A stretch of DNA of 64,000 nt from Somniosus microcephalus. Its lineage: Eukaryota. Below, piece by piece: positions 1-39,578 of the stretch; position 1 is the stretch's first letter, and each line of letters begins with the position of its first letter. Location: positions 164,300,001-164,364,000 of the forward strand of contig CM126208.1 in NCBI GenBank assembly GCA_052327205.1. Direction: 5' to 3'. Both the position numbers and the translations under genes were made by a program. The notes below the pieces were generated by a model that was not told the DNA's origin, did no database searches, and saw nothing but the letters and a program-made list of their open reading frames with translations.

Positions 1-1
1 G

Positions 2-1528
2 ATTTAATGAAGCTCCTATCCCCAACACTGTAACGCCTGCTTTTGGTAGCGATGGGCTTACAGTCGCGGGTGAGGTTAGCGAACAAGGAGGGGGGTGGAC
101 TTTAAGGGTGGAGAGGCTGCAAATGGTGCACGGCGGGCGATTTAAAAGCTGCTGGCTGCAGACTGTGAGTGGGGGGAGGGGTCCGTCATACGCTAATGTG
201 ACACTCTTAAGGTGGCACTGAAAATCCAACCCCAGTAGAACGGCAGCGCAGAGATGGGGCAGGACCAGAAGTTTAAAATTTTTGTATTCTGTGCCCCTTA
301 CTGAAAGGGTCACTACACAGTAGCCACCGACGTCCGCTGACTGGGCTTTGGAAGCCAAAGAGATCCGATGGCGCGTCGGCAGGACCGGGAGAGAGTAACT
401 GCGCACCGTGTCGGGGTGGATAAAGCTCTCCGTGCTCCCGCTGTCAAAAAGGCAGGTAGTGGCGCGGCCGTTTACCGTAATATCCATCATGGACCTGGAC
501 AGTTGATGAGGGAGAGATTGGTCCAGCGTCACGGAGGCCAGCGTATGGTCGAGCGAGTCGATGTGGTCGTCAGATGAGGCGGTGGTTGAGTCCGGCTCCC
601 CCGTGGTTGAAGTCGGAGGCGTCCAAGATGGCGGACAAAATGGCGGCGCCCCCGGTCCCGATCCCCACGCGGCTGGGGGAGCCCAAGATGGCGGACAAGA
701 TGGCTGCGCCCACGGTTCGCACGCAGCGCTGCTGGCGTTAGCGGTCTTCCCTTTGCAGGCGCTAACGTAGTGACCTTTCTTCCCGCAGCCGGAGCAGGTA
801 GCATTCTTCGCGGGGCAGCGTGCTCTAGGGTGTTTAGCTTGGCCACAAAAATAGCATTTTTGTGCCTTGGACATCGCTGCAGCAGTCGGAGGTGGCGGTC
901 CCATGGCCCAAGATTGCGGCGTCCACGGCGCGGGGCGACGAGGGGAGAAAGCGTCCATATTTCTGTGGGCCGCGTCGAGCGAGAGCGCGAGGGACACTGC
1001 CTTTGTCAGGTCTATTTCACCCTTCTCCAGCAGCCTCTGCCGGGAGTAGTCGGACCTTAGACCCGCAACGAAAGCGTCTCGTATCAGTCCCTCCGCATGT
1101 GCCGCGGCCGATACTTCCTTGCAGTCGCAGCCGCGTCCGAGTACCCGCAGTGCCCGTAGGAAGGCTTCCACCGATTCCCCGGGCTGCTGTCTGCGAGATC
1201 TTAAAAGGTGCCTGGCATAGACCGTGTTAACCGGGCGTGCATACTGCCCTTTCAGTAGGTCGATAGCCGCCGCGTAGGTCGTCGCATCTTGGATTAAAGT
1301 ATAGACTTGGTGGCTCAGCTTCGAGGCCAGGATTTTCAGTTTATTTTCATCAAGAGTCACGGTCGAGGCTTCCAGATACGCCTCAAAGCAACGCAGCCAT
1401 TGTGCGAATTTAGTCGACGAACCCGCTTCTTGGGGGTCTAGGTCCAGGCATGTTGGTCTGAGGGCTCGCAGCAGCGCCTGCTGCTCAGCGTTTTGCGCCA
1501 TCGGTTGATCAGCATCCGCAGCCAACAT
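2..1528 (-). CDS. Gag-protease(-pol) polyprotein, 5' portion, apparently open to the window edge
   Basis: Manual translation from ATG 1528: MLAADADQPMAQ...LRPTCLDLDPQEAGSSTKFAQWLRCFE; zinc knuckles CYFCGQAKHPRARC and CSGCGKKGHYVSAC; protease CLFDSGSTESFIHP, all in one frame. Absent from the ORF track, consistent with no stop before the edge. Confidence 0.85.
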   Translation of the reverse strand, partial: MLAADADQPMAQNAEQQALLRALRPTCLDLDPQEAGSSTKFAQWLRCFEAYLEASTVTLDENKLKILASKLSHQVYTLIQDATTYAAAIDLLKGQYARPVNTVYARHLLRSRRQQPGESVEAFLRALRVLGRGCDCKEVSAAAHAEGLIRDAFVAGLRSDYSRQRLLEKGEIDLTKAVSLALSLDAAHRNMDAFSPRRPAPWTPQSWAMGPPPPTAAAMSKAQKCYFCGQAKHPRARCPAKNATCSGCGKKGHYVSACKGKTANASSAACEPWAQPSCPPSWAPPAAWGSGPGAPPFCPPSWTPPTSTTGEPDSTTASSDDHIDSLDHTLASVTLDQSLPHQLSRSMMDITVNGRATTCLFDSGSTESFIHPDTVRSYSLPVLPTRHRISLASKAQSADVGGYCVVTLSVRGTEYKNFKLLVLPHLCAAVLLGLDFQCHLKSVTLAYDGPLPPLTVCSQQLLNRPPCTICSLSTLKVHPPPCSLTSPATVSPSLPKAGVTVLGIGASLN

Positions 1529-1547
1529 TTAACTTTGGTAATAAAAT

Positions 1548-1812
1548 TGATGCACTATCAATTGCTACAAAAGACTGGAGATTGAGAAAGTAATAAACAG
1601 GCTTTTATTACCAAAGAACAGAGCATGCCTCTTGTGGTTGCCTGGTATCCAAAAGGGCCGGAGGCTTCTGAGCAGCGACCTTTATACCCAGCCATGAGGG
1701 TGGAGCCAGGGGCGGAGTCAGCTGAGGCATGCACAGACAAGTACAACAATATGCAAGAGTGAACAACAGTACTAACAGTGAACAACAATACTAACAACAG
1801 TGGTTTACCACA
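1548..1812 (-). repeat. 5' LTR (265 bp)
   Basis: TG...CA termini; GC box (CTCCGCCCC), TATAAA and AATAAA on the minus strand; directly upstream of gag. Confidence 0.8.
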
Positions 1813-3095
1813 GATGGTTATTGCTTCAGTTGAAATATTCGCACCCTTATGTTGCCTATTAAAAAAAAACTATTTTTCTCATAAATTATCTTGCCTCCCC
1901 CCTCTGCTCCTGAAGGTGTTAACTCTTTGGTGGGATATTATTCCATGGTTTCCTCTGGCACCTCATCCAAGTGGCCATTATTTAACTGCAAAGGGAATTA
2001 CAGTCAAGCCTGTCCTGTCTTTACATGACCTTCACACCTATGCACTTCCCAGCAAAAGTCATGGATAATGATCAGGAGCTTGAACCGTGGCCAATTTTCC
2101 CCTCATTATCCCTAGGTACTAAGCTAATTGTGGTGCCTATGGCCGTCCCTTCTGGGATCATCTAACTGGGGATTGAACCTGGAATCTTACTGGTCTTATG
2201 ACTGGTCTTCAGCTACTCAATGTGTTACCTTTACACTACAATTTTGGCAGTGAGGCCACGTCTCTGTGGTGCTTCGCTGATACTACGAGGGCCATTTTAC
2301 GGGTTTGCATTCCAAGCTCAGACCTTCATCTGCTGGGAGCACATATTGGGAACAGACAGGCTCCAAAGTTCCGATACGCGCTTGTGCTGCTTGGCTAAAT
2401 ATCCTACACTCTATCTAGTCTCGCACAATATTTCTTATTTGAAAAAAAGCACTTTTAACAGCACCGTATTCCCTTAGTACCTCATTGGAGGGTCAGCCTA
2501 GATTATTATTTCTGACGCACGAGTGACTGTGCTACTAACTGAGCCAAGCTGACAGACTCGAAAGAGTGGAGAAAACTAGAAAAAACTTGTAGGTTCAAAT
2601 GCCTGTGGATTCAAAACATATATTTATTCGGTGACAATTCTGATACACATGCAACTCGGTGCTGATGCCTGAAGGTTTTTATTTTGTTGACAGCCCATGT
2701 TGCTAACAAAAATTAAAAAATTGGAAGTTGTGTCAGTTCTAAATAATCTTTAGTTGACCGGAAGCACTATTTCAAATTACTGCAATGTAAACATGATTTT
2801 ATATTTTGTGTGAGGAAAATAAACCTTTCCCTAGGATCTCTGTGAGCCTTTATTGTTTGGACTGGACAAATTTAGCCATCACAGATCCATTATATTTTAA
2901 TCATCTTAATTTTTTCTCCTTTGTACAAACTAAAGTGTAGATTTTATCTGATGTTAAATTTGTTTATGTTTAAAACAATTTTTGTGTGACAGTTCTCTTC
3001 TATACCAATATTTCTCACCTCCCCATGTCTTCTGCTGAGGGCTATAGTTAAAACATCTCTTGGGGCGTTGTTCATGGTGAGTTGGAGGTTAAACT

Positions 3096-5650
3096 GGGGG
3101 TGAAATTGGGCTTGGTCGCGCTCGTTTGTTGGGTGCTACAAGGTCCCTTAAGGTTCCAAAATGGCTGTGGCACGTGTGTACACTTCTGACGCAAAGTGCA
3201 CCAGACACCATATTGGTAAAAGAGTAAGCGCGTGCACCTAACTTCCATGGGAAGTATTCAGAGCAGGCAGATCATAACATCAATCAGCATGCAATGCTTA
3301 TTTGACACCAGCGCTGCCATTTTGGAGCTCCACGCTCCAGCCTGTGCCCTCTCTCAACCTCCCATAGCTGAACACGCATTCAACAGCATGAAGGACTCCC
3401 CATCAGCGCAATTTAAAGGGATCATCAACTACTTACAGGTTAGTTGCTGGATTATTTTTTTTGGCTGTTGTTGCAATTCTATGCGTTTTGGGTGCTTTTC
3501 CCAAAAGTTTCAAAGTTTCAATAATCTACAGAGAGTAAGCTTGCAAGGAACATAAAAGCGGACTGTAAAAGCTTCTACAAGTATGTAAAAAGAAAAAGAT
3601 TAGTGAAGACAAATGTAGGTCCCTTACTGTCAGAAACGGGACAATTTATAATGGGGAACAAGGAAATGGCAGAGCAATTAAACAAATACTTTGGTTTTCT
3701 CTTCACAGAAGAGGACACAAATAACTTCCCAGAAATGCGAGGGAACCAAGGGTCTAGTGAGAAGGAGGAATTAAAGGAAATTAGTATTAGTAAAAAAATA
3801 GAGCTGGAGAAATTAATGGGACTGAAAGCCAATAAATCCCCAGGGCCTGATAATCTGCATCCCAGAGTACTAAAAGAGGTAGCCATGGAAATAATGGATG
3901 CATTGATTGTCATCTTCCAAAATTCTATAGATTATGGAACAATTTCTGCAGATTGGAGGGTGTCAAATGTAACCCCACTATTTAAAAAAGGAAGAAGAGA
4001 GATAACAGGGAACTACAGACCAGTTAGCCTAACATCAGTAGTAGGGAAAATGCTAGGGTCTATTATAAAGGATGTGATACTAGGACACTTAGAAAATATC
4101 AACGGGATTAGACAAAGTCAACATGGATTTATGAAAGGGAAATCGTGTTTGACAAACTTACCGGAGTTTTTTGAGGATGTAACTGGTAGAATAGATAAGG
4201 GAGAACCAGTGGATGTGGCGTATTTTGATTTTCAGAAGGTCTTTGATAAAGTTCCACATAAGAGGTTAGTGTGCAAAATTAAAGCACATGGGATTGGGGG
4301 TAATATACTGGCATGGATTGAAAATTGGTTAACTGACAGGAAAGAGAGAGTAGGAATAAATGGATCTTTTTTGGGGTGGCAGGCGGTGACTAGTGGGGTA
4401 CCACAGGGATCAGTGCTTGGGCCCCAGCTATTCACAATATATATCAATGATTTGGATGAGGGAACCAAATGTAATATTTCCAAGTTTGCTGATGACACAA
4501 AACTAGGTGGGATTGTGAGTTGTGAGGAGGATGCAAAGAGGCTTCAAGGCGATTTAGACAAGTTGAGTGAGTGGGCAAATACATGGCAGGTGCAGTATAA
4601 TGTGGATAAATGTGAAGTTATCCACTTTGGTAGGAAAAACAGAAAGGCAGAGAATTATTTAAATGTGATAGATTGGGAAATGTTGATGTACAGAGGGACT
4701 TGGGTGTCCTTGTACACCAGTCACTGAAAGCAAACATGCAGGTACAGCAAGAGTTAGGAAGGCAAATGGTATGTTGGCCTTCATTGCAAGAGGATTTGAG
4801 TACAGGAGCAAGGGTGTCTTACTACAGTTATACAGGGCCTTGGTGAGACCACACCTAGAGTACTGTGTGCAGTTTTGGTCTCCTTACCTAAGAAAGGATA
4901 TGCTTGCCATAGAGGGAGTGCAGCGAAGGTTCACCAGACTGATTCCTGGGATGGCAGGACTGTCGTATGAGGAGAGAGTGGGTCGACTAGGCCTGTATTC
5001 ACTAGAGTTTAGAAGAATGAGAGGGGATCTCATTGAAACGTATAAAATTCTGACAGAGCTAAACAGGCTGGATGCAGGAAGTATGTTTCCCCTGGCTGTG
5101 GGGGTTCTAGAACAAGGGATCACAGTCTCAGGATAAGGGGTAGGACATTTAGGACTGAGATGAGGAGAAATGTCTTCACTCAGAGGGTGGTGAACTTGTG
5201 GCATTCTCTACCACAGAAGGCTGTGGAGGCCAAGTCACTGAATATATTTAAGAAGGAGATAGATAGATTTCTAGACATAAAAAGCATCAAGTGATATGGG
5301 GAGAGAGTGGGAATATGGTATTGAGATAGAGGATCAGCCATGATCATATTGAATGGTGGAGCAGGCTCGAAGGGCCGAATGGCCTACTCCTGCTCCTATT
5401 TATTTTCTATGTTTCTACAGGAAACAGTCTGGCCATTCCCCTGTACTATCTGAGTCTGAGTGCTGCAGTGGAAGAGCCAAAGTACTTAAAAGCTTGTGCT
5501 AAAAAGTGTTGCTTCCAGACATGGGTGGCCATAGTAGGGCTTCTTCTTGGCATTGAACATGATTAGGAGAATGAGCAGAGGCCACGCAGGGCAGGACAAG
5601 CTGCTAGAAGAGGGAGGAGAAGGAGGGGGAGAAGGGCTCTTAAGAGGAGT
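3096..5650 (+). mobile_element. Degenerate PIF/Harbinger left arm with transposase N-terminal remnant, interrupted by a CR1
   Basis: Starts GGGGGTGAAATT (same terminal pattern as other Harbinger ends here); 3100-3530 and 5420-5650 resemble 31265-31900, including the Arg-rich transposase start. Confidence 0.55.
3533..5417 (+). mobile_element. CR1-clade LINE, 5'-truncated (RT and C-terminal part of ORF2, frameshifted)
   Basis: ORFs 3603-4727 ([18 protein letters not shown]) and 4771-5136; typical 3' UTR ending TTCTATGTTTCTA; TCTACAG at both junctions. Confidence 0.95.
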
Positions 5651-5727
5651 GCTATGATGTCCTGGAAGCCCCTTTGCACACTGGTATCCAGAGCCAGTCT
5701 GAGCTTCTACTGTAGCACTCAGACTCA

Positions 5728-5945
5728 GACAGTGCTGGGCAATGGCCCTGGGCTTTGATAGTACTGGGCAATGGCCCTGGGCTCTGATAGTACTGGAGAA
5801 TGGCCCTGGGCTTTGATAGGACTGGGGAATGGCCCTGGGCTTTGATAGTACTGGTTAATGGCCCTGGGCTTTGATAGTACTGGGGAATGTCCCTGGGCTT
5901 TGATAGTACTGGGGAATGGCCCTGGGCTTTGATAGTACTGGGGAG
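5728..5945. repeat. 29-bp minisatellite, ~7.5 copies
   Basis: Unit GATAGTACTGGGGAATGGCCCTGGGCTTT starting at 5728, 5757, 5786, 5815, 5844, 5873, 5902, 5931. Confidence 0.95.
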
Positions 5946-6606
5946 TATGTCTTGGAGTTTGGCAGCACTCTGGTGGGGCTGCAAGGGTTTGGTAACATGG
6001 GAGCATGCTTTGGGCAGACTCTGGGTGAGTGGCAGGAGGTGAGATTGCACCGCCCAATGACTTTGCATAGAGGCCCAAGACATTTTAATTGTCAGGCCTT
6101 ATTTCAGTATACATGACAAAATGGAAGCCCTGAACCAGCACTTCATGGCAGCTCGCCATTTGGTGTTCATAGAATCATAAAATCATAGAGCGGTCGGAGA
6201 TAAAGATAGGCCCGAGAGCCCAGAGACCGGAGGGAGCGTGGGCATCAGGGAGTGGGGTGAAAAAACCTAAAGTTACGTTAGCACAAGGGAAGGAGCTGAT
6301 TGGTGAGTAGCTGGTGATTGTTTATTTTCATGTCCTGAGTTTATTTCTGTTAAGTTAGTTAATAGAGGCATTGCAGGGCACCTCAGTCCTGTGGAATGCA
6401 CATCCTGTGCCATGTGGGAACTCCAGGATGCTTCCCATGTCCTGGACAACTATACAGGAAGTGTCATCAGCTGGAGGAGCTCGAGCTCTGGGTTTCGGAG
6501 CTTGAGCAGCAGCTGGTGTCACCATGGTGCATCCGTAAGGCTGAGAGCTACGTGGATAGCACATTTCAGGAGGTGGTCACCCCACAGCTTAAGAGTGTGC
6601 AGCCAG

Positions 6607-8931
6607 TAGGGTTGCAAAGGGGTGGAAAGTTTCCAGTAAATTTCTGGTAAATTTCCGGAAATTTTCCACGGGAAGTTTAGCTTGGGAATTTTGCCCAAAA
6701 AAGCACATGCTAGCATAATATTGTTTTTTTTGTATTTCTTTCTTTTTTTTCCACAGGTCCTCTCTTAAAATTACTAACAGAGATGGAATCTTAATTACTA
6801 AGGAATTTCTTAATCAATATATGTTTATCTTCTTACTTGGCTTGTTTTAATAATTACAAGTTTTGTGTGTGACTGTGAACAAATGTGTCCTGATTGGTTG
6901 GATGAGTGGATGAGCGATTAGCTCCCTCTATTTGTAATATTTGCATATCGAATTGTGATTGGCCTGCAGGCATCTGTAAGACTGCTATAGTTTTTTTAAG
7001 ATCCAGGTTAGGGGTCCTGAGGGAAGTCATTTTGTTTTCTGCTGATGTTGTGATGATGCAGTAAGTAAATCAGACTTTATACGAAATAAACCAGTTACTT
7101 GTTGAACTCTGTTGTCCTTCAATTTAAAATATACAAAATAATACCCTATTGGTGATGTAGCGTCGTGTGTGTACAGGTCATGCTTCCATCACATGGAGCA
7201 TCAGCAAAAATGTACTCACCCTGTTGCAATCGTGCTGATCGACCGCAGTTCGACACAGAGATGAATGCCCTTTATTTCTCTGCATAGAACAATGCCACGT
7301 TTACCGTCGGATGTGTGGAAGCATTTTACCCCAGGCATTAAAGATGGAAAGACTGTGTACATGTGCAAACACTGTAGAAAGCCATATGTAAAGAATGCCA
7401 CAAAGATGCAGCAGCATTTATCCAACGATCTTGGATCACAATAGGTCTTTGCAGTAGTTACTGACAATGCTGCGAATATGAAGGCTGCTTGGGTTCAAGT
7501 GGAGGAGGCCTACCCTCATATTACGTCTATTGGGTGCGCAGCTCATGGGCTTAACCTGCTCCTCAAGGACATCATGGGTTTGAGAACCATGGAAGCACTG
7601 TACAAGAGAGCCAAGCAAGTTGTTAAGAATGTCAGGGGAAAACAGGTAGTTGCAGCAACCTACAACTCCAAGCAAATGACAAAGAACAAGAACACCACAC
7701 TGAAGCTGCCCAACAACACTAGATGGGGTGGTGTTGTCATAATGTACAACAGCCTTCTGGAGGGTAAGGAGTCGCTGCAAGAAATGGCAATATCCCAGTC
7801 TGGGGATATGGAAACCACCATCAAGAAAATACTGCTGGATGATGTGTTTTGGGAGAGAGTGGTTAGCAGCCTTAAACTACTCTCACCAGTAGCATCTGCA
7901 ATTGTTCAGATTGAAGGAGATGACGCTGTCTTGTCAGATGTTCTCAGGCTTTTTATTGATTTAAAAGAACAAATCAGCATTGCCCTTACCCACATCCCTG
8001 CTGCTCAAAGCAGAGAAGGCAATTGTTCAATTCATACAGACGCATCAAGAATTTTGTGTCAAGCCGATTCATGCTGCAGCATACATGCTGGACCCAAAGC
8101 ATGTCGGGAGACCAATACTTTCTGGAGAACAGATCAACAGCGCTTACAGTGTGATTTCTACCCTCTCACACCATCTCAATCTGGATGTGGGCAAAGTTCT
8201 GGGAAGTCTGGCAAAGTTCTCTACCAAGCAAGGTCTTTGGAATGGGGATGGGATATGGGAATCATGCAAGCGTATCAGTGCACATACCTGGTGGAAGGGA
8301 CTTTGTGCATCTGAGGCCCTGTCACCTATTGCATCGGTGATACTCCAAATCCCACCTTCATCAGCGGCCTCTGAACGAAACTGGTCACTTTTTGGGAATA
8401 CGCATACAAAGGTGCGCAACAGGCTGACTAACAAGAGAGTGGAGAAACTGGTGGCTATCTGGGCGAACCTACAACTTATTGAGCCAGATACAGAAGTGTC
8501 CACCACACAGCTAGACACTGACACAGAGGAGGAAATGGACACGTCAGAGCCAGAGTCAGAGAATCAGGAGGAGCAATGAGGAGTAGAAGACTCAGAAGAC
8601 TCATGAGTAGAAGACTCAAAGGGACAAAATAAGGACAAATTACAGGCTAAATAAGCTGACGCTCTTTTTATTTTATTTTAGATGGGTCTTTTTTGTGGGG
8701 GTTCAATAAAGTTCAAAATTATAACCTAAATAAAGTTTTGAAAGCCTGTTTTTATTTGTATGGAACAGTATGTCTATTTTGACGACAAAGACAATATAAG
8801 GGTCAGAGACAAAAACCATCAGTGTGCAAAAAAACTCAAAATTCCCATAAATTCCCCAAATTCCCATAAATTCCCGAAAATTCCCATGGAAAGTTTCCTC
8901 TTTTAAAAATTCCCAGAATTTTGCAACCCTA
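6607..8931 (+). mobile_element. hAT DNA transposon, internally deleted
   Basis: 12-bp TIRs TAGGGTTGCAAA / TTTGCAACCCTA; 8-bp TSD GCAGCCAG (6599-6606, 8932-8939); subterminal AAATTCCC repeats. Confidence 0.95.
7292..8579 (+). pseudogene. hAT transposase pseudogene (BED zinc finger, catalytic core, C-terminal dimerisation domain)
   Basis: MPRLPSDVWKHF...CKHC...MQQHL fused by deletion to VVTDNAANMKAAW, CAAHGLNLL, TRWG; in-frame TAG near 7442; frameshift near 7990; IPPSSAASERNWS. Confidence 0.9.
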
Positions 8932-10255
8932 GCAGCCAGAGAGGGAATGGGTGAGTGCCAGACAGACAAGAAAGACCAGGCAGGTAGTGCAGGAGTCCCC
9001 TGACTGCATCTCGCTCTCCAACCGGTATTCTGTTCTGAATACTGGTGAGGGCGATGGTTCCTCTGGGGAGTACAGCCAGAGCCAAGTCCACGGCACCATG
9101 GGTGGCTCAGCTGTACGGGGGTGGTGGAGGGAAGGGGAGGAAGATCGGGAAAGCAATAGTTATAGGGGATTCAATAGTTAGGGGAACAAGCAGGCGTTTC
9201 TGCGGCCACAGATGTGATTCCAGGATGGTCTGTTGCCTCCCTGGTGCCAGGGTCAAGGATGTCACTGAGCGAATATTCTGAGGGGGCTGGGTGAAAAACC
9301 AGAGGTCACGGTCCATATTGGTATCAACGACATAGGTAGAAAGAGGGTTGAGGTCCTGCAAGCAGATTTTAGGGAGCTAGGAAAGAGATTAATAAGCAGG
9401 ACCTCAAAGGTAGTAATCTCCGGATTGCTCCTGGTGCCATGAGGTAGTGAGTATAGAAATAGGAGGATAGAGCAGATGAATGCGTGGCTGGAGAGATGGT
9501 GCAGGAGGGAGAGCTTTAGATTCCTGAGACATTGGGACTGGTTCTGGGGGTGATGGGACCTGTACAGGCCAGACGGGTTGTACCAATATCCTCAAGGGCG
9601 GGTTTGCTAGTGCTGTTGGAGAGGGTTTAAACTAATTTGGCAGGGGGATAGGCACCAGGAGGAAGCATTAGAAAGGATAAATAAGGTGTACAAAGGATTA
9701 AGAGAGACGGATAGCATTAGAGTTAGAAATAGTACGGTATTAGGTGGGGTCAGACTGAGAGAGAATAGAAGAAGGCCTAAGATAGGTTTACAGTGCATGT
9801 ATGTAAATGCACAAAGTGTGGTAAATAAGATTGGTGAGCTGCAGGCGCAAATAGCCACATGGGAATATGATGTCATGGTGATAACGGAGATCTGGCTCAA
9901 AAAAGGGCAGGATTGGGTACTAAATATTCCTGGATATAAGGTGTTCAGGAAAGAGAGGGAAGAAGAGATAGGAGGTGGGATGGCAGTATTGATTAAGGAG
10001 AATGTTACAGTGCTGGGGAGAGAGGATTTCCTGGAGGGGTCTGTAGTGTATGTACCTTTAAGAGAGAACTACTTTTACAGCTCCTGTATACTGTAGTACC
10101 GGCAGTGACCACACCTGTATATAAGCCCTGAGCAGGGATCTGTACTGTTAGTTTTTTAGACTACCCTCATCCAGTAAACACCTGTTGATTGTTAATCTGC
10201 AGTCTCCGTCTATTTATTGAAGAACACCATACCTTAAGATTCATGGATTTAACAG

Positions 10256-10266
10256 TGGCGACGAGG
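10256..10266 (+). promoter_or_regulatory. Primer-binding site complementary to tRNA-Ser(GCU) 3' end
   Basis: TGGCGACGAGG one base after the 5' LTR; matches the ...CCTCGTCGCCA end of vertebrate tRNA-Ser(GCU); same motif at 23130-23140 (-). Confidence 0.75.
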
Positions 10267-10937
10267 TCGATTCGACCCTACCTGCAACTCTGCATTTCCT
10301 CCCAGGGATTCGCTCCTGGAGGACAGTGGAAGAAAGTCGAGGCCAGAAGCACGGGCGTCGACCACGAGCAACCGCCCAGTCATCCAGCAGAGAGTGAGCA
10401 TCGCAGGGGAGGCTGTTGAGAGCTGGGCTTGGTTCTCCAGCCACGATGATCCAGCAACAGCCTGGCAACAGGTACAGCGCAGACCCTTCCCGGACAGCGG
10501 CGGCTGGAGCCGACCGACGGCACAGAAAAGGCCAAGCAGCGTCGACGGGGTAAGAGAGAGGGTAAAGCACACAGGGCGCAGCCGGGGGTTGAAGACCGAG
10601 CGGCGTCGACGGAAAACAAAAAGAGAGAGAGGGTAAAGCACAGCCGGGGTTCAGGACCGAGCGTCGGCAATGAGAGAGGCGCACAGGAGAACGTGCAGAG
10701 CGCAGCCAGGGCTCAAGGGCTGAGCAGCGTCTGCGGGGGAAGAAAGGAAGCACGGGAGATGCCATTTGAGCCACAGAGAAGAAGGGAGGGCGCGGGAGAC
10801 GCCATTTTTGAAGCCGCAGTGGAGAAGAAGGGCGAGCGCGGGAAAAAAAGGAAGCGCGGGAGACGCCATTTTGAGCCAGCGGAGAAGAAGGGAGAGCGCG
10901 GGAGACGCCATTTTAGCCAGTCTAACCACACCCAGGG

Positions 10938-12359
10938 ATGCCGAAGAGTGGCAGTGTCACAGCGTTCGACAATGAAGTCGAAGATTGGGCGACATATGTG
11001 GAACGCATTGAGGTGTACTGCAAGGCGAATGAAGTGCCAGATGCCAGGAAAGCACTGGTTTTGTTGAATTCCATGGGTGCAAAAACGTATGGCTTACTGC
11101 GAAACCTAGTAACCCCAGAGAAGCCAGTGGATAAGGATTTCGAAAGCATAGTGGCAATCCTACAGGACCACTTAAACCCCACACCACTGCTGATAGCAGA
11201 AAGATTTAAGTTTCACAAAAGGAACCAGCATAAAGATGAGTATTTAACAGAACTGCGCAAGCTATCGAAACACTGCCAGTTTGGAATGGGACTAGCAGAT
11301 ACGTTAAGGGACAAGTTTGTGTGTGGGCTTCAAAGTGAAGGAACCCAGAAACGGCTTCTATCAGAAAAGGATCTTACGCTGGACAAGGCTTTCAGCATGG
11401 CAGTATCACATGAAGCAGCCACACGGGGCGCTGCAGAGATACAACGGAGACCGCAAGAATATGGCACCAATGAAATGTCATATGGAGCAGCGAAGTGTTA
11501 TCGCTGCGGCAGAACAACACACGACCAGAAGGATTGTTGGTTCAAGGACCAAGTGTGCAGACAGTGTGGAAAAGCAGGACACATAGCAAGAGTCTGCAGG
11601 TCGGGAAAGAAAACCAGCAGCCAGAAATCTCCACAGGAGAAGTACAAAAAGGTACATAAGGTGACGGAGAGTAGTTCAGACGAACAGAAAAGTGATACAA
11701 ACTCCGGAAGCAAGGAGCTGGGTTGTCTGAAACTACATAATGTAATCAAAATGGAGGATCACCAAACTATCTGGGTCACGCTCAAGATAGACGGAGTCCA
11801 AGTGAAAATGGAATTGGACACAGGATCAGCCCTAACAGTCATAAACCGAAGGGACTACAAGCGGCTATTCTCACATATACCCTTGAGAGATACAGAGATT
11901 GTCTTGAAGACGTACACGGGGCAAAAAGTCTACCCCAAAGGAAAAATAAGGGTGAACGTGATATACAACGGTAAGGAAACACCAAAAATGGACCTATATG
12001 TATTGCCAGATGGAGGACCACCACTACTAGGACGTGAATGGATCCGGAAGATACAGTTAGATTGGCATTCCATACAGGCACTGACGGTAGAGGCCAAAAA
12101 GGATGACGATGTCACACCTGGACGACTGTCAAAAATGTTAACTGATGCACAAGAAGTGTTCCAGGAGGGACTCGGAACACTAAAAGGCATAACAGCGACG
12201 ATCAAAATAGAGGAAAATGCAAGCCCAAAGTTTTTAAGGCCAGACCGGTGCCTTATGCGATCCGCCCAGCCGTCGAAGCAGAGCTGGAAGGTTTGGAACG
12301 TTCAGGAGTACTGTCCAAAGTGGACTGGAGCGAGTGGGCTACACCCATCATTCCTGTAG
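10938..12359 (+). CDS. Gag-protease ORF of element A
   Basis: Two CCHC knuckles (CYRCGRTTHDQKDC, CRQCGKAGHIARVC); aspartic protease MELDTGS...LLGR. Confidence 0.9.
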   Translation: MPKSGSVTAFDNEVEDWATYVERIEVYCKANEVPDARKALVLLNSMGAKTYGLLRNLVTPEKPVDKDFESIVAILQDHLNPTPLLIAERFKFHKRNQHKDEYLTELRKLSKHCQFGMGLADTLRDKFVCGLQSEGTQKRLLSEKDLTLDKAFSMAVSHEAATRGAAEIQRRPQEYGTNEMSYGAAKCYRCGRTTHDQKDCWFKDQVCRQCGKAGHIARVCRSGKKTSSQKSPQEKYKKVHKVTESSSDEQKSDTNSGSKELGCLKLHNVIKMEDHQTIWVTLKIDGVQVKMELDTGSALTVINRRDYKRLFSHIPLRDTEIVLKTYTGQKVYPKGKIRVNVIYNGKETPKMDLYVLPDGGPPLLGREWIRKIQLDWHSIQALTVEAKKDDDVTPGRLSKMLTDAQEVFQEGLGTLKGITATIKIEENASPKFLRPDRCLMRSAQPSKQSWKVWNVQEYCPKWTGASGLHPSFL

Positions 12360-14872
12360 TGAAGAGGTCGTTGAGTAATACGCCTGGGGAACCAAAGAAG
12401 GTTCGCATTTGTGGGGACTTTAAGGTGACAGTGAACCCAGTCCTTCACACGGTACAATATCCGCTTCCGCGGATTGAAGATATTTTCGCCTCGCTATCTG
12501 GAGGAAAACGCTTCACTAAGATTGATCTGGCCCAGGCGTACCTGCAAATGGAGGTAGAAGAAGCCTCAAAACAATACCTCACGATCAACACTCACAAAGG
12601 TCTCTACCAATACAATCGGCTGGTATTCGTGGTAGCATCAGCTCCGGCTATTTGGCAAAGGGCAATGGATCAAGCCCTGCAAGGGATTCCAGGGACCCAG
12701 TGTTATTTGGACGACATCCTGGTCACGGGCGAAAATGACAGTGATCACCTCGCCAACCTGGAGCAGGTGCTCACTACATTGAAGGAATATGGGCTACGAG
12801 CTAATTGCCACAAATGCAAGTTTTTCCAGAAGCAGATCTCGTATTGTGGCCACGTTATTGATGAAGAGGGGTTACATAAGTCCCCTGAAAAGATTGAGGC
12901 AGTAGTCAAGGCTCCAGCACCAGAAAATGTGTCACAACTGAGGTCGTTCCTCGGGCTGGTGAACTACTACCATAAGTTCTTACCAAATTTGTCTACAGTA
13001 TTACACCCACTGAACACCCTACTGCAAACGGGGGTACCATGGAAGTGGAATGACAAATGTAAACGAGCTTTCCAGAAGTGCAAAGAATTGATCACATCAA
13101 AAGAGGTGTTGGCTCATTTCAACCCAGCACTACCAATTCGGTTGGCGTGTGATGCATCACCCTATGGTATTGGAGCGGTGCTGTCGCACAAATTCCCAGA
13201 TGGGTTGGAGAGGCCAGTAGCCTTTGCGTCTCGGTCACGAACCTCAGCCGAGCACAACTACGCCCAGATTGACAGGGAGGCCCTCAGCCTAGTATGGGGA
13301 GTAAAAAAGTTCAACCACTATCTGCACGGGCAGAAGTTCACCTTGCTGACTGACCACCAACCACTTGTCTCCATCTTTAATCCAAAGAAGGGCGTTCCGG
13401 TGATGACTGCGCAACGGCTACAATGATGGTCCCTTTTTCTAGGGGCGAACCAATATGAAATAGAGTATAAGGGCACGAAACAGCATGGAAACGCTGATGG
13501 GCTATCACGCCTGCCACTGCCTACTGCGGAGGAAGTACCAGCAGTGGACCCAGTCGAAATATTTTATTCAACCATAATTGAACGCTTGCCAGTAACTAAC
13601 GCGGATATAGAGAAGGAGACCTGAAATGATCCGACACTGTCTCGGGTATATGATTTGACGGTGAGGGGATGGCCAACACATGGCGACTCACTGTTGCCAG
13701 CATTCTCATCTAGAAGGGAACAGCTGTCAGTATGCCAGGGGACATTGATGTGTGGCTCCTGAGTGGTGATTCCACCCAAGTTAAGGGAGAGAGTGCTCAA
13801 TGAGCTTCACGAAGGCCATCTGGGAGGGGTGAAAATGAAAAGCCTTGCTAGGACTTATGTGTGGTGGCCGGGGATCGTTCAACAAATCGAGGACCTAACA
13901 AAGAGCTGCTCAGGATGCCAGAAGGTCCAAAATGCACCACCACATGCCCCTCTACACCCATGGGAGTGGCCCTCCTCTCCATGGCAACGGGTGCATATTG
14001 ATTTTGCTGGTCCATTCATGGACTCAATGTTTTTAATAGCAGTGGATGCACACTCGAAATGGCCTGAGGTGATAAAAATGTCCTCCACCACTATGGAGAA
14101 AACGATTGCAGTCCTACGGACCATATTTGCCAGGAACGGCTTGCCAGAACAGATTTGCTCTGATAACGGACCACAGTTTGTGTCCGAAGAATTTCGGAAA
14201 TTTATGAGAAGGAATGGGGTAAGGCATTATACATGCGCCCCGTATCATCCAGCCACAAATGGATTGGCTGAGAGGTTCGTATAAACCTTTAAAAAGGCAG
14301 TAAGGGCCATGTGCGATGACGACATTCCACTGCAGCATAAGGTGGACAATTTCCTGTTAGCCTACAGAAATGCGACACATGCAGTGACCAACCAGACCCC
14401 GGCCATGATGTTCTTTAACCGAAGGTTGAGATCTCGTATGGATTTGCTCAGACCAAATGTACGAAGAAATGTTGAGAATAAGCAATTCCAGCACATCAAT
14501 GAGAAGCCGACAAGGAGCTTCAATGTAGGACAACCAGTCTTGGCCCGCGACTACCGAACAGAGAAATGGCAACCAGGAACGATATGCACACGACAGGTGC
14601 CACTAATGTACACAGTGGATGTTGGGGAGAACATTGTGAGACGCCATGTCGACCAGATCCTAGCGTCACAAGAACGAGTCAACCCCATGTCTCGCGTACC
14701 TGGTGATGAACCCGGCATACCGGTAGCATCTACCCCAGAAACAGTAGCATCGGAAGCTGATGAACTAACCAACGACAGGGGGCCAGAATTGCCTTCGCAC
14801 CAAGAGCAAGACACTCAGGAATGGCACTATCCAGAAAGAATCAGGAAGCCGCCCCAAAGACTGAATCTATAA
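12236..14872 (+). pseudogene. RT-RNase H-integrase of element A with several in-frame stops
   Basis: YLDD, LACDAS, HEGH/CSGC, HIDFAGPF, SDNG, NGLAERFV; stops near 13424, 13622, 13760, 14282. Confidence 0.92.
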
Positions 14873-17159
14873 ATGGACTATTTCCATTAATGTGCATGTT
14901 AAAAGTGTTAACTGTTAATTGAATGTTATGGTACTGTTAATCTAAAAGGGGAGGAATTGTAGTGTATGTACCTTTAAGAGAGAACTACTTTTACAGCTCC
15001 TGTATACTGTAGTACCGGCAGTGACCACACCTGTATATAAGCCCTGAGCAGGGATCTGTACTGTTGGTTTTTAGGCTACCCTCATCCAGTAAACACCTGT
15101 TGATTGTTAATCTGCAGTCTCCGTCTATTTATTGAAGAACACCATACCTTAAGATTCACGGATTTAACAGGGTCAAGGACAGAATCTATTTGGTTAGAGT
15201 TAAGAAACAATAGAGGTGCCATTACACTACTAGGTGTATTCTATACACCACCAATGACTTGGACTTGGGTGTACAGGGCACAATTAAAAAATTTGCAGAT
15301 GGCTCTAAACTTGGAAGTATAGTGAACAGTGAGGAGGATGGTGATAAACTTCAAGAGGACATAAACAGGCTGGTGGAATGAGTTGACACGTTGCAGATGA
15401 AATCTAATGCAGAAACATGCGAAGTGATACATTTTGGTAGGAAGAACGAGGAGAGGCAATATAATCTAAAGGGTACAATACTAAAGGGGGTGCATGAACA
15501 TAGCGACCTGGGGGTATATGGACACAAACCATTGAAGGTGGCAGGGCAGGTTGAGAAAGTGGTTAAAAAATCATACGGCATCCTGGGCTTCATAAATAGA
15601 GGCATAGAGTACAAAAGCAAGGAAGTTACGATGAATCTTTATAAAACACTGGTTTGGCCTCAACTGGAGTACTGTGTCCAATTCTGGGCACTGCAATTTA
15701 GGAAGGATGTGAAGGCCTTAGAGAGGGTGCAGAAGAGATTTACAGGAATGGTTCCACGGATGAGGGACTTTAGTTACATGGATAGACTGGAGAAGCTGGG
15801 GTTGTTCTCCTTAGAGCAGAGAAGATTGAGAGGAGATTTGATAGAGGTGTTCAGAATCATGAAGGGTCTAGTCAGAGTAGAGAGAAACTGTTCCCATTGG
15901 CAGAAGAGTCGAGAACCAGAGGACACAGATTTAAGGTGATTGGCAGACGAACCAAAGGCGACATGAGGCAAAACTTTCTTACGCAGCGAGTGGTTAGGAT
16001 CTGGAATGCACTGACTGAAAGGGTGGTGGAGGCAGATTCAATCGTGGCTTTTAAAAGGAAATTGGATAAGTACCTGAAGGAAAAAATTTGCAGGTCTACA
16101 GGGACAGGGCGTGGAGTGGGACTAGCTGAAGTGCTCTTGCAGAGAACCGGCACAGGCTTGATGGGCCAAATGGCCTCTTTCTGTGCTGTAACCATTCTAT
16201 GATTCTGTAGAAATTTATGCCACAGAAGGAGGCCATTTGGCCCATCGTGTCTGTGCCGGTCGAAAAAGAGCTATCCAGCCTAATCCTACTTCACAGCTCT
16301 TGGTCCGTGAGGGGTGTGTGGTTGGGTGGGGGTATGGGTGGGGGGGGGGCGGAGGGGCACCCGGGCTGCTGATGTGAAGTTTCCAAACAAAATGATGATA
16401 GATGAATCAGGAGTGGGAAAGGTGTGATAAGTTCAGCCCGGCGATATATAAAATATCAAATCCAAGCCAAGGCTTTTGGAAGAAGCTGAGGCCTTCAAAC
16501 AAAAAGTTTAATAAAGGTATTAAAAGATACAAAAAAACTAATTAATGGATACACTTCGATCATATTATTATGAAATATGTGTTTTGTGAATTTTATATAT
16601 TGCTTATTTTGGACACTAGGGCCTAGAAATTCGATTGCACCCATCAAAAATGGTGGATCAAAATTTTTTTGATAAAGCATATTAAGTAATTCTATTTATT
16701 CATCAATAGACAGTGGTGGTGAAAGTTGATATAGCAAAATTGAATCAGAACTGTTGACACACCAATTTACAATGGAGAAAAGGTGGCACTAAAGTGTGAG
16801 TAAAAATTACATACAACAGGTAATAAGGTTTGTGCACATGAAGTGTGCAACATTTACAACATTTTTAATAAGATATACAGACTTCAGCTGAAGTATTTAT
16901 TTGATTCACATTCAACGGATCCGCCATTTCCGCCACTTCCAGCGTGATCCCACCACCAAACACTTCTACCCCTCCCCTTTCAGCATTTCGAAGGGACCAT
17001 TACATCCACGAAACCCTAGTCCACTCCTTAATCAACCGCAACACCCTCTCCCCTTCCCACAGCACCTTCCCATGCAAGTGCCGAAGTATGGATAATTTAA
17101 TATATTTATGCCTGCCCTTTTACCTCCTCCCTTCCCACCATCCAGGGCCCCTAACACTC

Positions 17160-17402: not shown

Positions 17403-18527
17403 CAGGTGAAACAGAGATTTAATTGTACTTCTTTCAATTTAGTATACTGTACTCGCTGTTCACGATGCAGTCTCCTCGACATTCGGGAGACCAAATGCAG
17501 ATTGGATGACCACTTTGCGGAACACCTCCATTCAGTCTGCAAGCATGACCCTGAGCTTCCGGCCGCTTATCACTTTAATTCTCTGCTCCCGTTTTTTTCA
17601 GACACGGCTGTTGGTAATGATACTGCTATTGCCATTTACACCTCCTCTAGACCCATCTTTTTTTTCTTTATTTGTCCCATTACCATCTCCTTTTGCCTTG
17701 CACCAACATCCCTGTTGTCATTTAATCTCTCCTGCCTTCCACCCTATCACAGACCTTCCCTTTTGTTCTTTCCTCCCCTGCCCCCTTTACATGCCCCTGC
17801 ACTTACTTAAAACCTGTTGGGGGCTAAATTTGGTTGATTTGCACCTCCTATTAGCGCCCTAAGAGGGCACTAACGGGGCGCAAATCAACTAACGCCTGGG
17901 CTCGGCGCCGCTAACGCCGCCCGCGAAATTCAGCAGGAGGTTAGCGGTGGCGCTGCGCTGCCGGCAATGATGTCATCATTGTGTGCAGTGCCCCGCTCGT
18001 ACCCCGGCTGTAATATTGGGTGGCGCCTCCCGACTTACCGCCGGACGCTATGTCCGCCGGGGTCAGGGGGACGACCTGCGGCGGGGGCGGCGCTAGTCAA
18101 AGGGGAGGTGGCTGGCAGCCATTTTTGTTGCTGGCTGCCAGCCAGCACCTGCCCCCGTTGCTGTCCCCGGCCCCGTGAAGCCCCCCGCGGGGTGCTGGCT
18201 GCTCCCCATGAGCCCAGCACTCCTCTTTGTTACGTCCGTGTATAATCAGACACAGACTGCGGAGAACGGTACAAACGGTGTTTACTCAACGTGGCTCAGA
18301 ATGCAACTGAACTGTACAGATTACTACTCAACGTTATATACAGGTGTGGTCACTGCCGGTACTACAGTATACATGAGCTGTAAAAAGTAGTTCCCCCCTT
18401 AAAGGTACATACATTACAATTCCTCCCCTTTTAGATTAACAGTACCATAACACTCATTTAACAATTAAATATCAAACTAATTACAATTAACACTTTTAAC
18501 ATGCAACATTGGCTGAAAATAGTCTAT

Positions 18528-28099: not shown

Positions 28100-28309
28100 A
28101 AAATAATATTGCTTCCAAATAAATCTTTACTTATTTGATTCAGAAGAAAAATTGATAATTAGTTCATCTCTACAATGTTATGACAAATGTGCTTAAAGCT
28201 GCATCTATAGCATTTGGCAATCTAAACTCAGCTGAATATAGTGACCCATCTTTGCTGCTAACTCACAACAGTTTGTAAAGCACAAAACCAAAAATATAGA
28301 TTGCAAACT

Positions 28310-28530
28310 AAGGTTCTAGAGACTGAGAGTTTGTTTCCCCTGGCTGGAGTGTCTAGAACTAGGGGACATATTCTCAGGCTATGGGGTAGGCCATTTAAGA
28401 CCGAGATGAGGAGGAATTTCTTCACTCAGAGGATTTTGTATCTTTGGAATTCTCTGCCCCAGAGAGTTGTGAATGCTGAGTCTTTGAGTATATTCAATGC
28501 TGAGAGAGATAGATTTTTGGACTCTAGGGG
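28310..28530 (+). mobile_element. CR1 ORF2 C-terminal fragment fused to an inverted CR1
   Basis: LFPLAGVSRTRGH...FFTQR..LWNSLPQ, abruptly joined to a minus-strand RT near 28532. Confidence 0.8.
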
Positions 28531-34660: not shown

Positions 34661-35228
34661 ATGTGGGGAATCGCAGCTGTGAACCAACGTCCTAATTTCC
34701 TGTGGCTCATGTATTAGGTAGGGTTAGACCAGAAGAATATAGGGGGCAAAATTGGGTGCCTTTGCGCCTCTCGTTAGCGCCCCGGGGGGCACTGATGGGG
34801 TGTAAATGGCTTTGCGACCAGGTACAGCGCTGACATCGACTCCCGCCATATTTGGCGTGAGTTTTGTGGCAGCGTTACGGCATTGCACCCCAATCTCCTT
34901 CGCCCGGAGACCGTGATGTCATCGCCATGCACATCACCCCGGTAATGCCTTGGACCCAAAATTGACTTCCGCCCACTGACAGCTGCAGGAGGCATGCATC
35001 GGGTGGCCGGCTGATTTGAGGGTGATGATTAAAGGTGAGGTGGCCGAGGTAAGTAAAAAAAAACTTACCTTGTTGCAGTTTTTTTCGCGGGTTACTGCCC
35101 GCAATTGATCAGCCTGGCACTCTGCTTGAGTGCCGGGCTGATCGCGTGGGATCGCGGCTGCCTTGGTTGTCCAGGTAGGTACTTTTAAATTGCAGAGCCT
35201 GCAGCGATGGCCCTTCCCTTTAAGGGAG

Positions 35229-38200
35229 TGTAATGAAATCTGTTTGCCTTGGTCCTGTATTCATTTTGCACTCGTGTATATTACCCTCCCCGACTGTGTA
35301 TAGTTTCACTTCCTCTTTCCCGACTAACCTGGGAGGTTCCAGGTCTTGGCTCTTGGCTCCGCCCCTGACTTCTCTTACATAAAGATCCCAGGATCTGTAT
35401 GACTCATTCCTGTGACCCAGTCGGCGTGTTGAGATGTTAGCTCTGATCTTAGTGATTAAAAGCCAACTTGTTTAAGTCTACAACTTCTAGTTTTGTGGTT
35501 ATTGAAGGCCCATCAATTTTAATCACTAAAGAATACTAGGATGGATCGACTCCTAAAACCAGAGCGTCTGGACTTGGATCCACATTCTGCTGAAGCATCA
35601 AACCAATTTGGACACTGGCTCAAATGCTTCGAACTCTTCGCGGGGGCCTCATCCGCTAGCGAGGTAGATAAACTGAGTCTACTGACTACTCGCGTAAGTC
35701 ATCGGATTTATTCGTTCATCCGGGACGCCACCTCTTACACGGAGGCCATCACTATCCTGAAGGCCCAATACCAGAGGCCGGTAAACGAAGTGTACGCCAG
35801 ACATCTGCTGGCTACACGCAGGCAGCGACCAGAGGAATCAATGGACGATTTCTTACAGGGCCTAAAGGACCTGGTCCGGGACTGTAACTGCAAGGCCGTG
35901 ACGGCCAACGCGTACTCTGACGAATTGGTCCGCGATTCCTTCATCACGTGCCTCAAATCGAATTATATCCGGCAGAGACTGCTGGAGAAGGAGGTCCTGG
36001 ACTTAAAAAAGGCAGTGGCCACTGCGCGATCGCTGGACGTGGCCCAGAAAAACTCTGATTTTATTCTTCCGGCCATGCGGCCCTCACCGCCTCGTGCGCG
36101 CCGAGGGGGCCGCCATCTTGGAATCAGCCATCTTCCCCATCCAGGTCTCAGACCAGCTCTACGCCGCCGGAGTCCCCACACAGAAGTTCACCCAGGAGTC
36201 CTGCTACAGCGGCAATGTCTCGAGGCCCGAAATGCTACTTCTGCGGCCAGGCCAAGCACCCCAGACAACGATGCCCAGCGAAGGATGCTACATGCTTCAA
36301 ATGTAAGAAAAAGGGGCATTTTAGCAAAGTCTGCAGGGGGAATCCGATTTCCAACTCCGTCACCGCCTCGTGCATGCCGTGCGGGCCGCCATCTTGGGAT
36401 CCACCATCTTTTCCCGACTCAACGGCCGCCCAGGGCCCAACAGTGGCTTCGATCACGGTGGATCAATCCAGGCCACACCCGTTGACAAAATCCATGATGG
36501 ACATACAGGTAAACGGGAATTTAACGAAATGTTTAATTGACTGTGGGAGTACCGAGAGTTTTATCCACCCTAGCCTGGTACGGCGGCACTCATTAACGGT
36601 AACCCCCACACGGAGCAGAATTGCTATGGCTGCTAAGCCCCACACTTCGGACATTTTGGGCTACTGTGTGGTAACACTGACTGTAAAAGGCACGGACTAC
36701 AAGGATTTTAAACTCCTTGTGATGCCAGAACTCTGTGTTAATGTAATCTTGGGCCTGGACTTCCAGTGCCACCACGAAAGTGTCACGCTAGCATATGGCG
36801 GGTCCCAGCCGCCACTCACAGTCTGTGGCCTATCAACCTTAAAAATCAGCCCACCCTCTTTATTCGCTAATCTCGCTCTGAACTGTAGGCCCATAGCGAC
36901 CAAAAGTAGACGGTACAGTCTGGAAGACAGACACTTTATCAAGGCGGAAGTGGACAGACTCCTGCGGGAAGGCATTATTGAATGCAGTACCAGCCCGTGG
37001 CGTGCCCAAGTAGTCATAGTTAAAAATAGCGAGAAGAAATGGATGGTAATTGACTACAGCCAGACTGTTAATATTTATACCTAGCTGGACGCCTACCCTT
37101 TACCCCGCATATCAGAAATGGTCAACCAGATTGCGCAATACCGAGTCTTCTCGACTATCGACCTCAAATCCGCGTATCACCAGCTCCCCATTAGAACGGA
37201 GGACCGCCCATACACCGCCTTCGAGGCGAACGGGCACCTCTACCATTTTCTCAGAGTGCCCTTCGGGGTAACAAATGGGGTCTCGGTCTTCCAACGTGAG
37301 ATGGACCGCATGGTTGACGAGAATAAACTACAAGCTACCTACCCCTATCTGGACAATGTCACTATCTGCGGGCACAACCAGCAAGACCACGATCTAAATC
37401 TTGCGAGATTTTTAAAAACTGCCCTAAAGCTGAATCTAACCTACAACGAAGACAAATGTGTCTTCAACACAACCCGTCTCTGTATCCTCGGCTGTGTGGT
37501 GGAAGATGGGGTAATTGGACCGGACCCTGACCGATTACGCCCCCTAAAGGAACTGCCCCTGCCACACAATCCCAAAGCTTTAAAAAGGTGCCTGGGATTT
37601 TTTTCGTATTATGCCCAATGGGTGCCCAATTACTCTGATAAGGCCCGACCCCTCATTAAATCGACGTCCTTCCCACTATCAGCTGAAGCTCGGGAGGCTT
37701 TCACCAGTATTAAACAGGACATTGAAAGGGCTGCAGTGTGTGCAGTGGACGAATGCATTCCCTTTCAAGTCGAAAGCGATGCGTCAGACTTTGCCTTAGC
37801 TGCGACCCTCAATCAGGCTGGGAGACCTGTGGCCTTCTTCTCCCGAACCCTTCAGGGACCTGAAATCAGGCACTCTTCTGTCGAGAAGGAGGCACAGGCT
37901 ATAGTGGAGGCAGTGCGGCACTGGAGACACTACCTAGCCGGCAAACGTTTCACCCTGCTCACCGACCAGCGGTCGGTGGCTTTCATGTTTAATAACAAAC
38001 AAAGGGGGAAAATCAAGAATGACAAAATACTCAGGTGGAGGATCGAACTATCCATGTTCAACTATGATATTATGTACAGGCCGGGAGCCCTTAATGAACC
38101 CCCAGACGCCCTATCGCGGGGAATGTGTGCCAGCATTCATACGGACAAATTACAGGGTCTCCACAACGACCTCTGTCACCCAGGGGTCACCCGACTATAC

Positions 38201-39578
38201 CATTTTATAAAGTCCCGCAATCTGCCCCACTCCATCGAGGAGGTCAGGACAATGACCAGAGCCTGCCGCATCTGTGCGGAATGCAAGCCTCGTTTCTACA
38301 GGTCTGACCGTGCACACCTTATCAAAGCCACACGGCCATTCGAGCGTCTAAGTCTGGACTTCAAGGGACCCCTTCCCTCTGCCGACCGTAACGTATACTT
38401 CCTCAATATCATTGATGAATATTCCCGCTTCCCCTTCGCCATTCCCTGCCCAGACATGACCAGTGCCACGGTCATCAAGTGTCTCTGTAATCTATTCTGC
38501 ATGTTTGGCATGCCGAACTACATACACAGCGATAGGGGGACGTCATTCATGAGTGACGAGCTGCACCAGTTCTTGCTCTCGAAGGGGATAGCCACTAGCA
38601 GAACCACTAGCTACAACCCCCGGGGTAATGGGCAAGTGGAAAGGGAGAATGCTACTGTTTGGAAGGCTGTCACGTTAGCCTTAAAGTCAAAAGGCCTTCC
38701 GACCTCCCGCTGGCAGGAAGTCCTCCCAGATGTGCTCCACTCCATAAGGTCTCTGTTATGTACTGCCACTAACGCCACCCCTCACGAAAAGATGTTCATT
38801 TTCCCCCGGAAATCCACCTCGGGCATATCTCTACCCGCGTGGCTGACGTTTCCGGGGACAGTACTATTGCGGAAGCACGTGAGAGGCCATAAAACGGACC
38901 CCCTTGTGGAAAAGGTACAGCTCCTCCATGCAAACCCTCAGTACGCCTATATCGAATACTCTGACGGGCGAGAGGGCACTGTTTCCATAAAAGACCTCGC
39001 TCCCTCGGGGAGCGGAGAGAACGATGGGAGACTACCCGATGAAGACCTACACTACAAAGAGACAGGACGCCCAGAGGTATCAATACCCAACTTTAACCTG
39101 GAGGACACTGCAGATAACCTGGAAGACACTGCGGAGGCCCGGACAGCGGAGGAACCAGAATCCATTCCCCTAGAGGCACCCCAACCGGCTTTGCGCCGAT
39201 CACTGAGAACTGCAAAACCTCCTGACAGACTCACTTATACCAACTTTTAAGAAACATCACCCCGATGGACGAAATCTATAGAAGGGGTGAATGTAATGAA
39301 ATCTGTTTGCCTTGGTCCTGTATTCATTTTGCACTCGTGTATATTACCCTCCCCGACTGTGTATAGTTTCACTTCCTCTTTCCCGACTAACCTGGGAGGT
39401 TCCAGGTCTTGGCTCTTGGCTCCGCCCCTGACTTCTCTTACATAAAGATCCCAGGATCTGTATGACTCATTCCTGTGAACCAGTTGGCGTGTTGTGATGT
39501 TAGCTCTGATCTTAGTGATTAAAAGCCAACTTGTTTAAGTCTATAACTTCTAGTTTTGTGGTTATTGAAGGCCCATCA
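35229..39578 (+). mobile_element. Full-length Gypsy LTR retrotransposon C (no tRNA PBS)
   Basis: 287-bp LTRs 35229-35515 and 39292-39578 (4 substitutions seen); TSD GGGAG; empty site TTTAAGGGAGGGAAGG in sister array units; PPT AGAAGGGGTGAA. Confidence 0.97.
35541..39250 (+). pseudogene. gag-pol of element C with one frameshift (~36060) and one stop (37082-37084)
   Basis: Gag, two CCHC knuckles, protease LIDCGS, RT YLDN, RNase H ESDAS, integrase HxxxCH/CxxC, LDFKG, SDRG, VER. Confidence 0.92.

Follow-up and report, generated by a model that had tools for sequence, protein, structure and literature searches.

Reverse transcription primed by an element's own RNA, rather than by a tRNA, is established for the yeast retrotransposon Tf1 and has been predicted for its chromovirus kin and for two plant lineages, going by the relevant sections of the papers cited here. 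The Tf1 primer consists of the 11 bases with which the element's own RNA begins, released by an RNase H cut, and the Tf1 leader is described as a 'pretzel' of three duplexes (PMC7175516, PMC4600332, PMC10085805, PMC5341516). In Tf1, Tf2, Tj1 and the Tf1/sushi group there is no tRNA site, and the site after the 5' LTR complements the element's own LTR RNA, as in the clade described below. Self-priming has also been predicted for the plant elements Tcn1 (Gypsy) and TAR (copia) from complementarity between site and 5' LTR (PMC6317226); the first is a chromovirus and the second belongs to copia, and both predictions, as given in those sections, come from complementarity only. What happens to the primer afterwards differs between systems. 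Retroviruses (HIV, MLV and mouse ETn/MusD) copy the primer into the plus-strand site, which is inherited 50:50, so that primer-site variants become scattered over the tree, and Ty1 and Ty3 reportedly do not copy it into the site, which is strictly inherited (PMC7472051).

The window analyzed here, a stretch of 64,000 nucleotides, contains the 5' end (window positions 1-1812) of a 4481-bp (~4.5 kb) element spanning 164297332-164301812 (G000:C7), which we call family A. Its features are as follows.

2..1528, minus strand: gag-protease portion of a single gag-pol ORF
1533..1546, minus strand: primer-binding-site position, 14/14 complementary to the LTR arm, not starting with TGG
1547, minus strand: single-nucleotide spacer A after the LTR CA
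1548..1812, minus strand: 5' LTR, 265 bp, TG...CA, identical in sequence to its 3' counterpart, which lies left of the window
1600..1602, minus strand: GCC directly 3' of the arm, predicted cleavage junction
1603..1616, minus strand: LTR arm, predicted self-primer, whose 3' end overlaps the LTR's only AATAAA (1609-1604)
1681..1686, minus strand: TATAAA, candidate TATA box by sequence, about 70 nt upstream of the LTR arm
1813..1817, minus strand: target-site duplication CCATC, 5 bp

The element has the paired TG...CA LTRs, target duplication, polypurine tract and PR-RT-RNase H-IN set of Ty3/Gypsy elements. The LTR boundaries given in a preliminary description of this DNA depended on the 3' LTR outside the window, which was retrieved; the two 265-bp LTRs are 100% identical, the 3' copy ends at the same CA, and the CCATC duplication is present. 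Six further copies have the same TG...CA ends, with 5-bp duplications, and a purine run precedes the 3' LTR in all seven. Whether pol is intact had been left to be checked: the window copy carries a frameshift in gag-pol close to the window's left edge, whereas five of the seven copies examined carry one ORF of 1296 aa. The best copies in the 6.4-Gb genome (40 scored of 1537 candidates) are 99-100% identical, indicating that the family is very young. One LTR-end pattern of the clade had 12,593 matches in this genome, a few of which are 3' LTRs.

A domain scan gave the order protease, RT, RNase H, integrase for the clade's proteins, with the Ty3 RT as the nearest solved structure (E 2.5e-48) and no chromodomain at the integrase C-terminus in 14/14 proteins scanned (E 0.01). 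Tf1/sushi elements are chromoviruses; given the missing chromodomain the clade was provisionally kept apart from them, a separation based on domain content. The metazoan non-chromovirus Gypsy elements Mag, CsRN1, Cigr-1 and MolGy1-16 share the single gag-pol ORF and the PR-RT-RH-IN order, as well as a zinc-knuckle Gag and short LTRs, a likeness of architecture. The nearest named proteins are from rays and sharks (RT identity 84-85%), which points to a cartilaginous fish as host, and named relatives also occur in nematodes, a fluke, a sea cucumber, cnidarians, crustaceans and an insect. A scan of viral contigs gave no relatives, and an Rfam search gave two sub-threshold chance matches only. In the literature searched, no description of self-priming in this clade was found, and a prior description is possible. 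The words 'PBS', 'primer' and 'tRNA' do not occur in the main text of PMC6238403, motif searches of five of its supplement files and of supplement files to PMC8556966 found nothing, and the available portions of PMC3601003 and PMC13524379 make no mention of self-priming for this clade.

On the minus strand the LTR ends with GTGCATCA at 1548 and is followed by a single A at 1547. The next segment, TTTTATTACCAAAG at 1546-1533, is the exact complement of CTTTGGTAATAAAA, which occupies 1616-1603 and stops 55 nt short of the end of the LTR. The LTR end, one-A spacer and perfect 14-nt complement of the preliminary description were thus all read in the sequence, as was its AATAAA within the arm, at 1609-1604. 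By composition, the chance of this 14-mer match in the 265-nt LTR is about 8e-7. Folding of the leaders, also proposed earlier, bore this out in part: the family A leader folded better than shuffled sequence at 101 nt (z = -2.9; 2/200 shuffles as good) and not at 141 nt (z = -0.44), and the two folds of the element C leader described below gave z = -1.27 and +0.13. With such mixed z-scores, folding energy alone is weak support for the duplex. Across six leader lengths, the 14 duplex pairs had predicted pair probabilities of 0.84-1.0.

A second element in the window, element C, has its own duplex.

35229..39578, plus strand: element C, sister family, with target duplication GGGAG and a broken gag-pol
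35229-35515 and 39292-39578, plus strand: element C LTRs
35449..35461, plus strand: element C LTR arm, TTAGTGATTAAAA
35517..35529, plus strand: element C primer-site position, TTTTAATCACTAA

The element C duplex is paired at 13/13 positions and lies 54 nt from the LTR end, so that the near-equal spacing (55 vs 54 nt) and the full pairing reported earlier for the two elements both hold. The preliminary description had read them as two families with covarying duplexes. The letters do differ with pairing kept, but element C is not distant: at 85-86% RT identity to A its sequence makes it a sister family, and two such families alone are thin evidence for covariation. Two more families, D and E, lie within 200 kb of the family A element. 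Family D (RT 90% vs A; L031:1454-1690, minus strand) is found left of the window, about 2.6 kb past the 3' end of element A, with a 14-bp duplex of its own, and its LTR opens with the same 18 nt as the family A LTR. Family E (L040:5100-5420; RT 58%) has a 10-bp duplex and a longer leader before gag.

The breadth of the pairing was assessed in metagenomes, where a scan with a 55-protein alignment returned 68 loci. Of these, 39 gave no match to the Gag N-terminus and in 3 the upstream DNA was too short, leaving 26. Together with A, C, D and E these were put to a blind test, which picked out whichever perfect inverted repeat was longest within 320 nt upstream of gag. The duplex was the longest inverted repeat in 26 of the 30 loci, at 10-17 bp, against shuffle means of 6.6-8.3 bp, with one shuffle reaching 13. 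The four misses were damaged or mismatched copies: one degenerate (L096), one with a mismatch (L108), one with the arm deleted (L109), and one with a mismatch from which a 9-bp part was recovered (L117). In a separate LTR-pair search, the pairs returned for L094 and L077 were false; the direct-repeat pair at L094:3786-8200 surrounds an inverted clade relative, looks nested or rearranged, and was left out of the counts.

Nineteen family representatives (RT 44-100% to A) were then aligned, with same-family copies, L096, L108 and L109 excluded. The arm register in this alignment was picked by best pairing, the blind search serving as the unbiased test, and pairs were counted across families by script. 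Positions +2 to +14 after the LTR CA are paired in 18-19 of the 19 families, +15 to +17 in 10-12, and positions beyond in 3-6. The first pair always falls 2 nt past the LTR CA, the spacer nucleotide is A in 18/19, and position +11 is a G-C pair in all 19, with RCC directly after the arm in 17/19, where it often opens a second short helix. Loop length ranges from 21 to 68 nt across families while the register to the LTR end stays constant. Each family's own arm pairs at 9.84 of 10 core positions versus 5.90 for other families' arms, only 11 of 342 cross-family combinations reaching 9/10. No family has a TGG-initial primer site (0/19). In seven distant Gypsy copies nearby (RT 27-30%), CA-N-TGGCGACGA was found at the presumed LTR ends in 7/7, and we take this TGG-type motif to be a tRNA primer site. 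Two copies (L062 and L063) that are 98% identical over 4.2 kb (76 of 4202 columns differ) show one matched change, in which both LTR arms and the primer site are altered together. The compensatory change of the preliminary description is therefore real and extends well beyond two families, to 19 representatives with differing letters.

From this sequence comparison we consider it quite probable that the segment after the LTR binds a primer derived from the element's own RNA and not a tRNA, a predicted case of tRNA-independent self-priming outside the Tf1/sushi chromoviruses. On what is known of LTR elements, the paired segment occupies the place at which a primer has to bind, and extension from the last A of the arm would run directly into the end of the LTR. 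In the proposed mechanism, a 13-16-nt LTR arm pairs with the primer-site position in fixed register to the LTR CA; the RNA would be cut between AAA and RCC, probably through the element's RNase H in the manner of Tf1, and the resulting 3'-OH would start minus-strand DNA. When the plus strand is made later on, the primer would be copied into its own binding site, so that arm and site would stay matched without further selection on either. Another RNA can probably supply the primer as well, be it a sister RNA packaged alongside or a short transcript of the LTR. Pairing breaks off sharply at +14 to +17, which suggests that the primer has this length. In families A, C and D a TATAAA is found about 70 nt upstream of the arm, which would place the transcription start about 40 nt before the arm and suggests an internal primer.

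Several probable differences from Tf1 follow from this comparison. The arm here is 13-16 nt long and overlaps the poly(A) signal. It may be internal to the transcript, with the start suggested by the TATA box about 40 nt before it, whereas Tf1 takes the initial 11 nt as its primer. In most families a single additional helix (RCC...GGY) is predicted, which does not clearly amount to the 'pretzel' of Tf1. Primer exchange between subfamilies, considered below, is not mentioned in the available sections on Tf1. Two RNA runs (X7, X8) had reads on the LTR, drawn from mixed families, with no start, poly(A) or cleavage site discernible. Over the LTR (1548-1812) these reads favoured one orientation several-fold, opposite to the bias over gag, and stopped at the LTR ends; they probably represent antisense or read-through transcription across LTR copies.

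Copy-back of the primer into the site was examined in two subfamilies, T and G, which are 97% identical to each other (RT 90-92% to family A) and can be told apart at arm letter -13 and at site letter 13. Counted over the whole genome, the combinations of arm letter/site letter were T/A 1871, G/C 1689, T/C 212 and G/A 22, so that 212 of 2083 T-arm copies carry the sister's primer-site letter. Only seven T-arm copies had G or T at site letter 13, five of them from another family, and any change at the neighbouring letter was seen in 11 T-arm copies; the stray letter is thus the complement of the G arm in 212 cases vs 2 with other letters. Eighty whole copies were fetched, of which 79 were matched and 69 were full length. 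Of the T/C copies, 11/12 partial and 13/16 full-length ones have a T body to either side of the site, also at the diagnostic positions that lie about 50 nt upstream and about 120 nt downstream. At the other diagnostic sites of T-bodied copies, foreign states filled 7 of 1156 cells (0.6%) vs about 10% at site 13. The simplest reading of these sequences would be that the site letter was overwritten during replication from a G-type arm, the template staying T-type, that is, by trans priming with copy-back.

The excess of T/C copies comes from a single site and a single pair of subfamilies, and an error hot spot specific to that site is a possible source of it; other AACAAA contexts were sought in the element for comparison and none was found. 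The reverse class, a G body with the T-type site letter, makes up about 0.8% of G copies. This exceeds what other letters reach at the site (0), but it does not exceed the foreign states that G copies show at other diagnostic sites (19/986). Among 19 full-length G/A copies examined, 12 had G in both LTRs and 7 lacked it or were unreadable; six of the 19 have a T body and carry G in the arm of the 5' LTR alone. Two T-bodied copies (L285, L288) have a 5' LTR with two G-type letters 7 nt apart covering the arm and T-type letters on both sides. A third, mosaic lineage between T and G has A at the site in seven copies and C in three, interleaved in the tree, among hand-picked rather than random copies; this lineage has itself amplified (L259, L274, L246, L281, L321-L326, L328). 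Family D showed no cross-family overwriting above background (15 matches, no double change), nor did family A at the one position tested (7 matches), and the evidence for copy-back comes from relatives, not from family A. The strict inheritance reported for Ty1 and Ty3 would count against copy-back, and the retroviral precedent uses a host tRNA, where here the primer would be element RNA. If copy-back is real, part of the covariation across families would be templated copying rather than independent compensatory mutation. The fuller account, in which a widespread animal Gypsy clade replaced the tRNA by an LTR RNA cut at the poly(A) signal, with the primer passing in trans between sisters and being written into the site, is one that we hold tentatively, as plausible.

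Among the other explanations, the one that survives best is self-priming strictly in cis, with the T/C copies being what remains of a founder that carried the mismatch, its descendants having been corrected again and again to match their own arm. It likewise requires copy-back, and we regard it as rather unlikely. T/C and T/A copies are mixed in all sublineages with no T/C lineage (permutation p 0.23), and by LTR divergence (T/A 0.64%, T/C 0.67%) the two are of the same age; a founder in cis predicts both the scatter and the equal ages as well as trans priming does. Some G-bodied copies (L244, L257) also combine a C site with T arms in both LTRs, and the G/A class is not clearly above background. 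However, families A and D and the TTTGC-arm families have the T/A state, so that C at the site looks derived, and the stray letter exactly complements the arm of a co-existing sister (212 vs 2). The 36 fixed differences between T and G would moreover represent a long time for a mismatch that is halved in each cycle.

That the duplex serves only to hide the 5' LTR poly(A) signal against premature polyadenylation, with priming achieved otherwise, we judge improbable. The arm overlaps AATAAA or ATTAAA in 12 of the 19 families, with a one-letter variant in most others, and the hexamer is predicted by folding to be fully paired in the 5' LTR context; hiding the signal may therefore be a second role of the duplex. 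Yet seven of the 19 arms have no canonical hexamer, an AATAAA lies free in the loop of L064, and the 3' LTR fold also pairs 4/6 hexamer bases. A register that stays fixed while the loop length is free suits priming, and concealing a signal does not call for it. Concealment also leaves unexplained the +2 register, the missing TGG site and the primer sites shifted from their own arm toward the sister's.

We consider it very improbable that the match lacks a function in RNA and is kept up at the DNA level, whether through template switching at a quasi-palindrome, through ectopic gene conversion or through a hot spot of polymerase error. Short foreign patches do occur, as in the six T-bodied G/A copies noted above, and the folding energy of whole leaders is unexceptional, but palindrome correction would improve self-pairing, yet the T/C copies lose a pair. 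Nor would it account for foreign states at 0.6% elsewhere vs about 10% at the site, or for a register and a G-C pair at +11 that are fixed over 19 families. A host RNA (a tRNA half or other small RNA) acting as primer, with the LTR match secondary or serving RNA dimer formation or packaging, is just as improbable, since the site differs in every family and tracks the element's own arm and none of the sites begins with TGG, even though half-tRNA priming is described for some copia lineages in the relevant part of PMC6317226. The functional RNA duplex put forward in the preliminary description is thus supported, and the fixed register and primer-site overwriting point more specifically to a primer for reverse transcription.

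The remainder of the window is rich in other repeats. Inverted copies of a different Gypsy element, about 90% identical, occupy 10239-14886 and 18514-23157, with a TGG-type site and a long repetitive leader. Four copies of a unit of about 1.7-2 kb, mostly 91-100% identical in their best-matching parts, lie at 33620-46662, with element C inserted among them; one ORF scanned in this unit had no Pfam match. A 386-codon frame at 62316-63476 (minus strand) has a DDE_Tnp_4 transposase domain (E 4e-38), which we take to be Harbinger-type, and adjoins a 361-codon frame without a Pfam match at 60889-61974. Decayed non-LTR-type reverse transcriptase copies were seen at 3525-5325, 27174-29123, 40093-41419, 48381-50141 and 57760-59307, and a DUF659 match at 7445-8314, presumably typical of hAT-like transposon remnants. 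Tandem arrays of G-rich 10-12-nt units, 29-nt units and 54-nt units are found at 29324-29726, 5699-5973 and 60344-60613, respectively.

Taken as self-priming, these observations point to a separate and very abundant clade of animal elements that is free of dependence on host tRNA and that, if tRNA-independent, would also escape silencing by tRNA fragments. Annotation pipelines that demand a tRNA site would undercount it. The T/G pair offers a readout, from sequence only, of which molecule primed each insertion, and makes cis vs trans priming and copy-back testable in a Gypsy element. If the proposal is true, an element of 14 nt unites 3'-end formation, priming and automatic co-evolution, and the genome retains a countable record of primer exchange.
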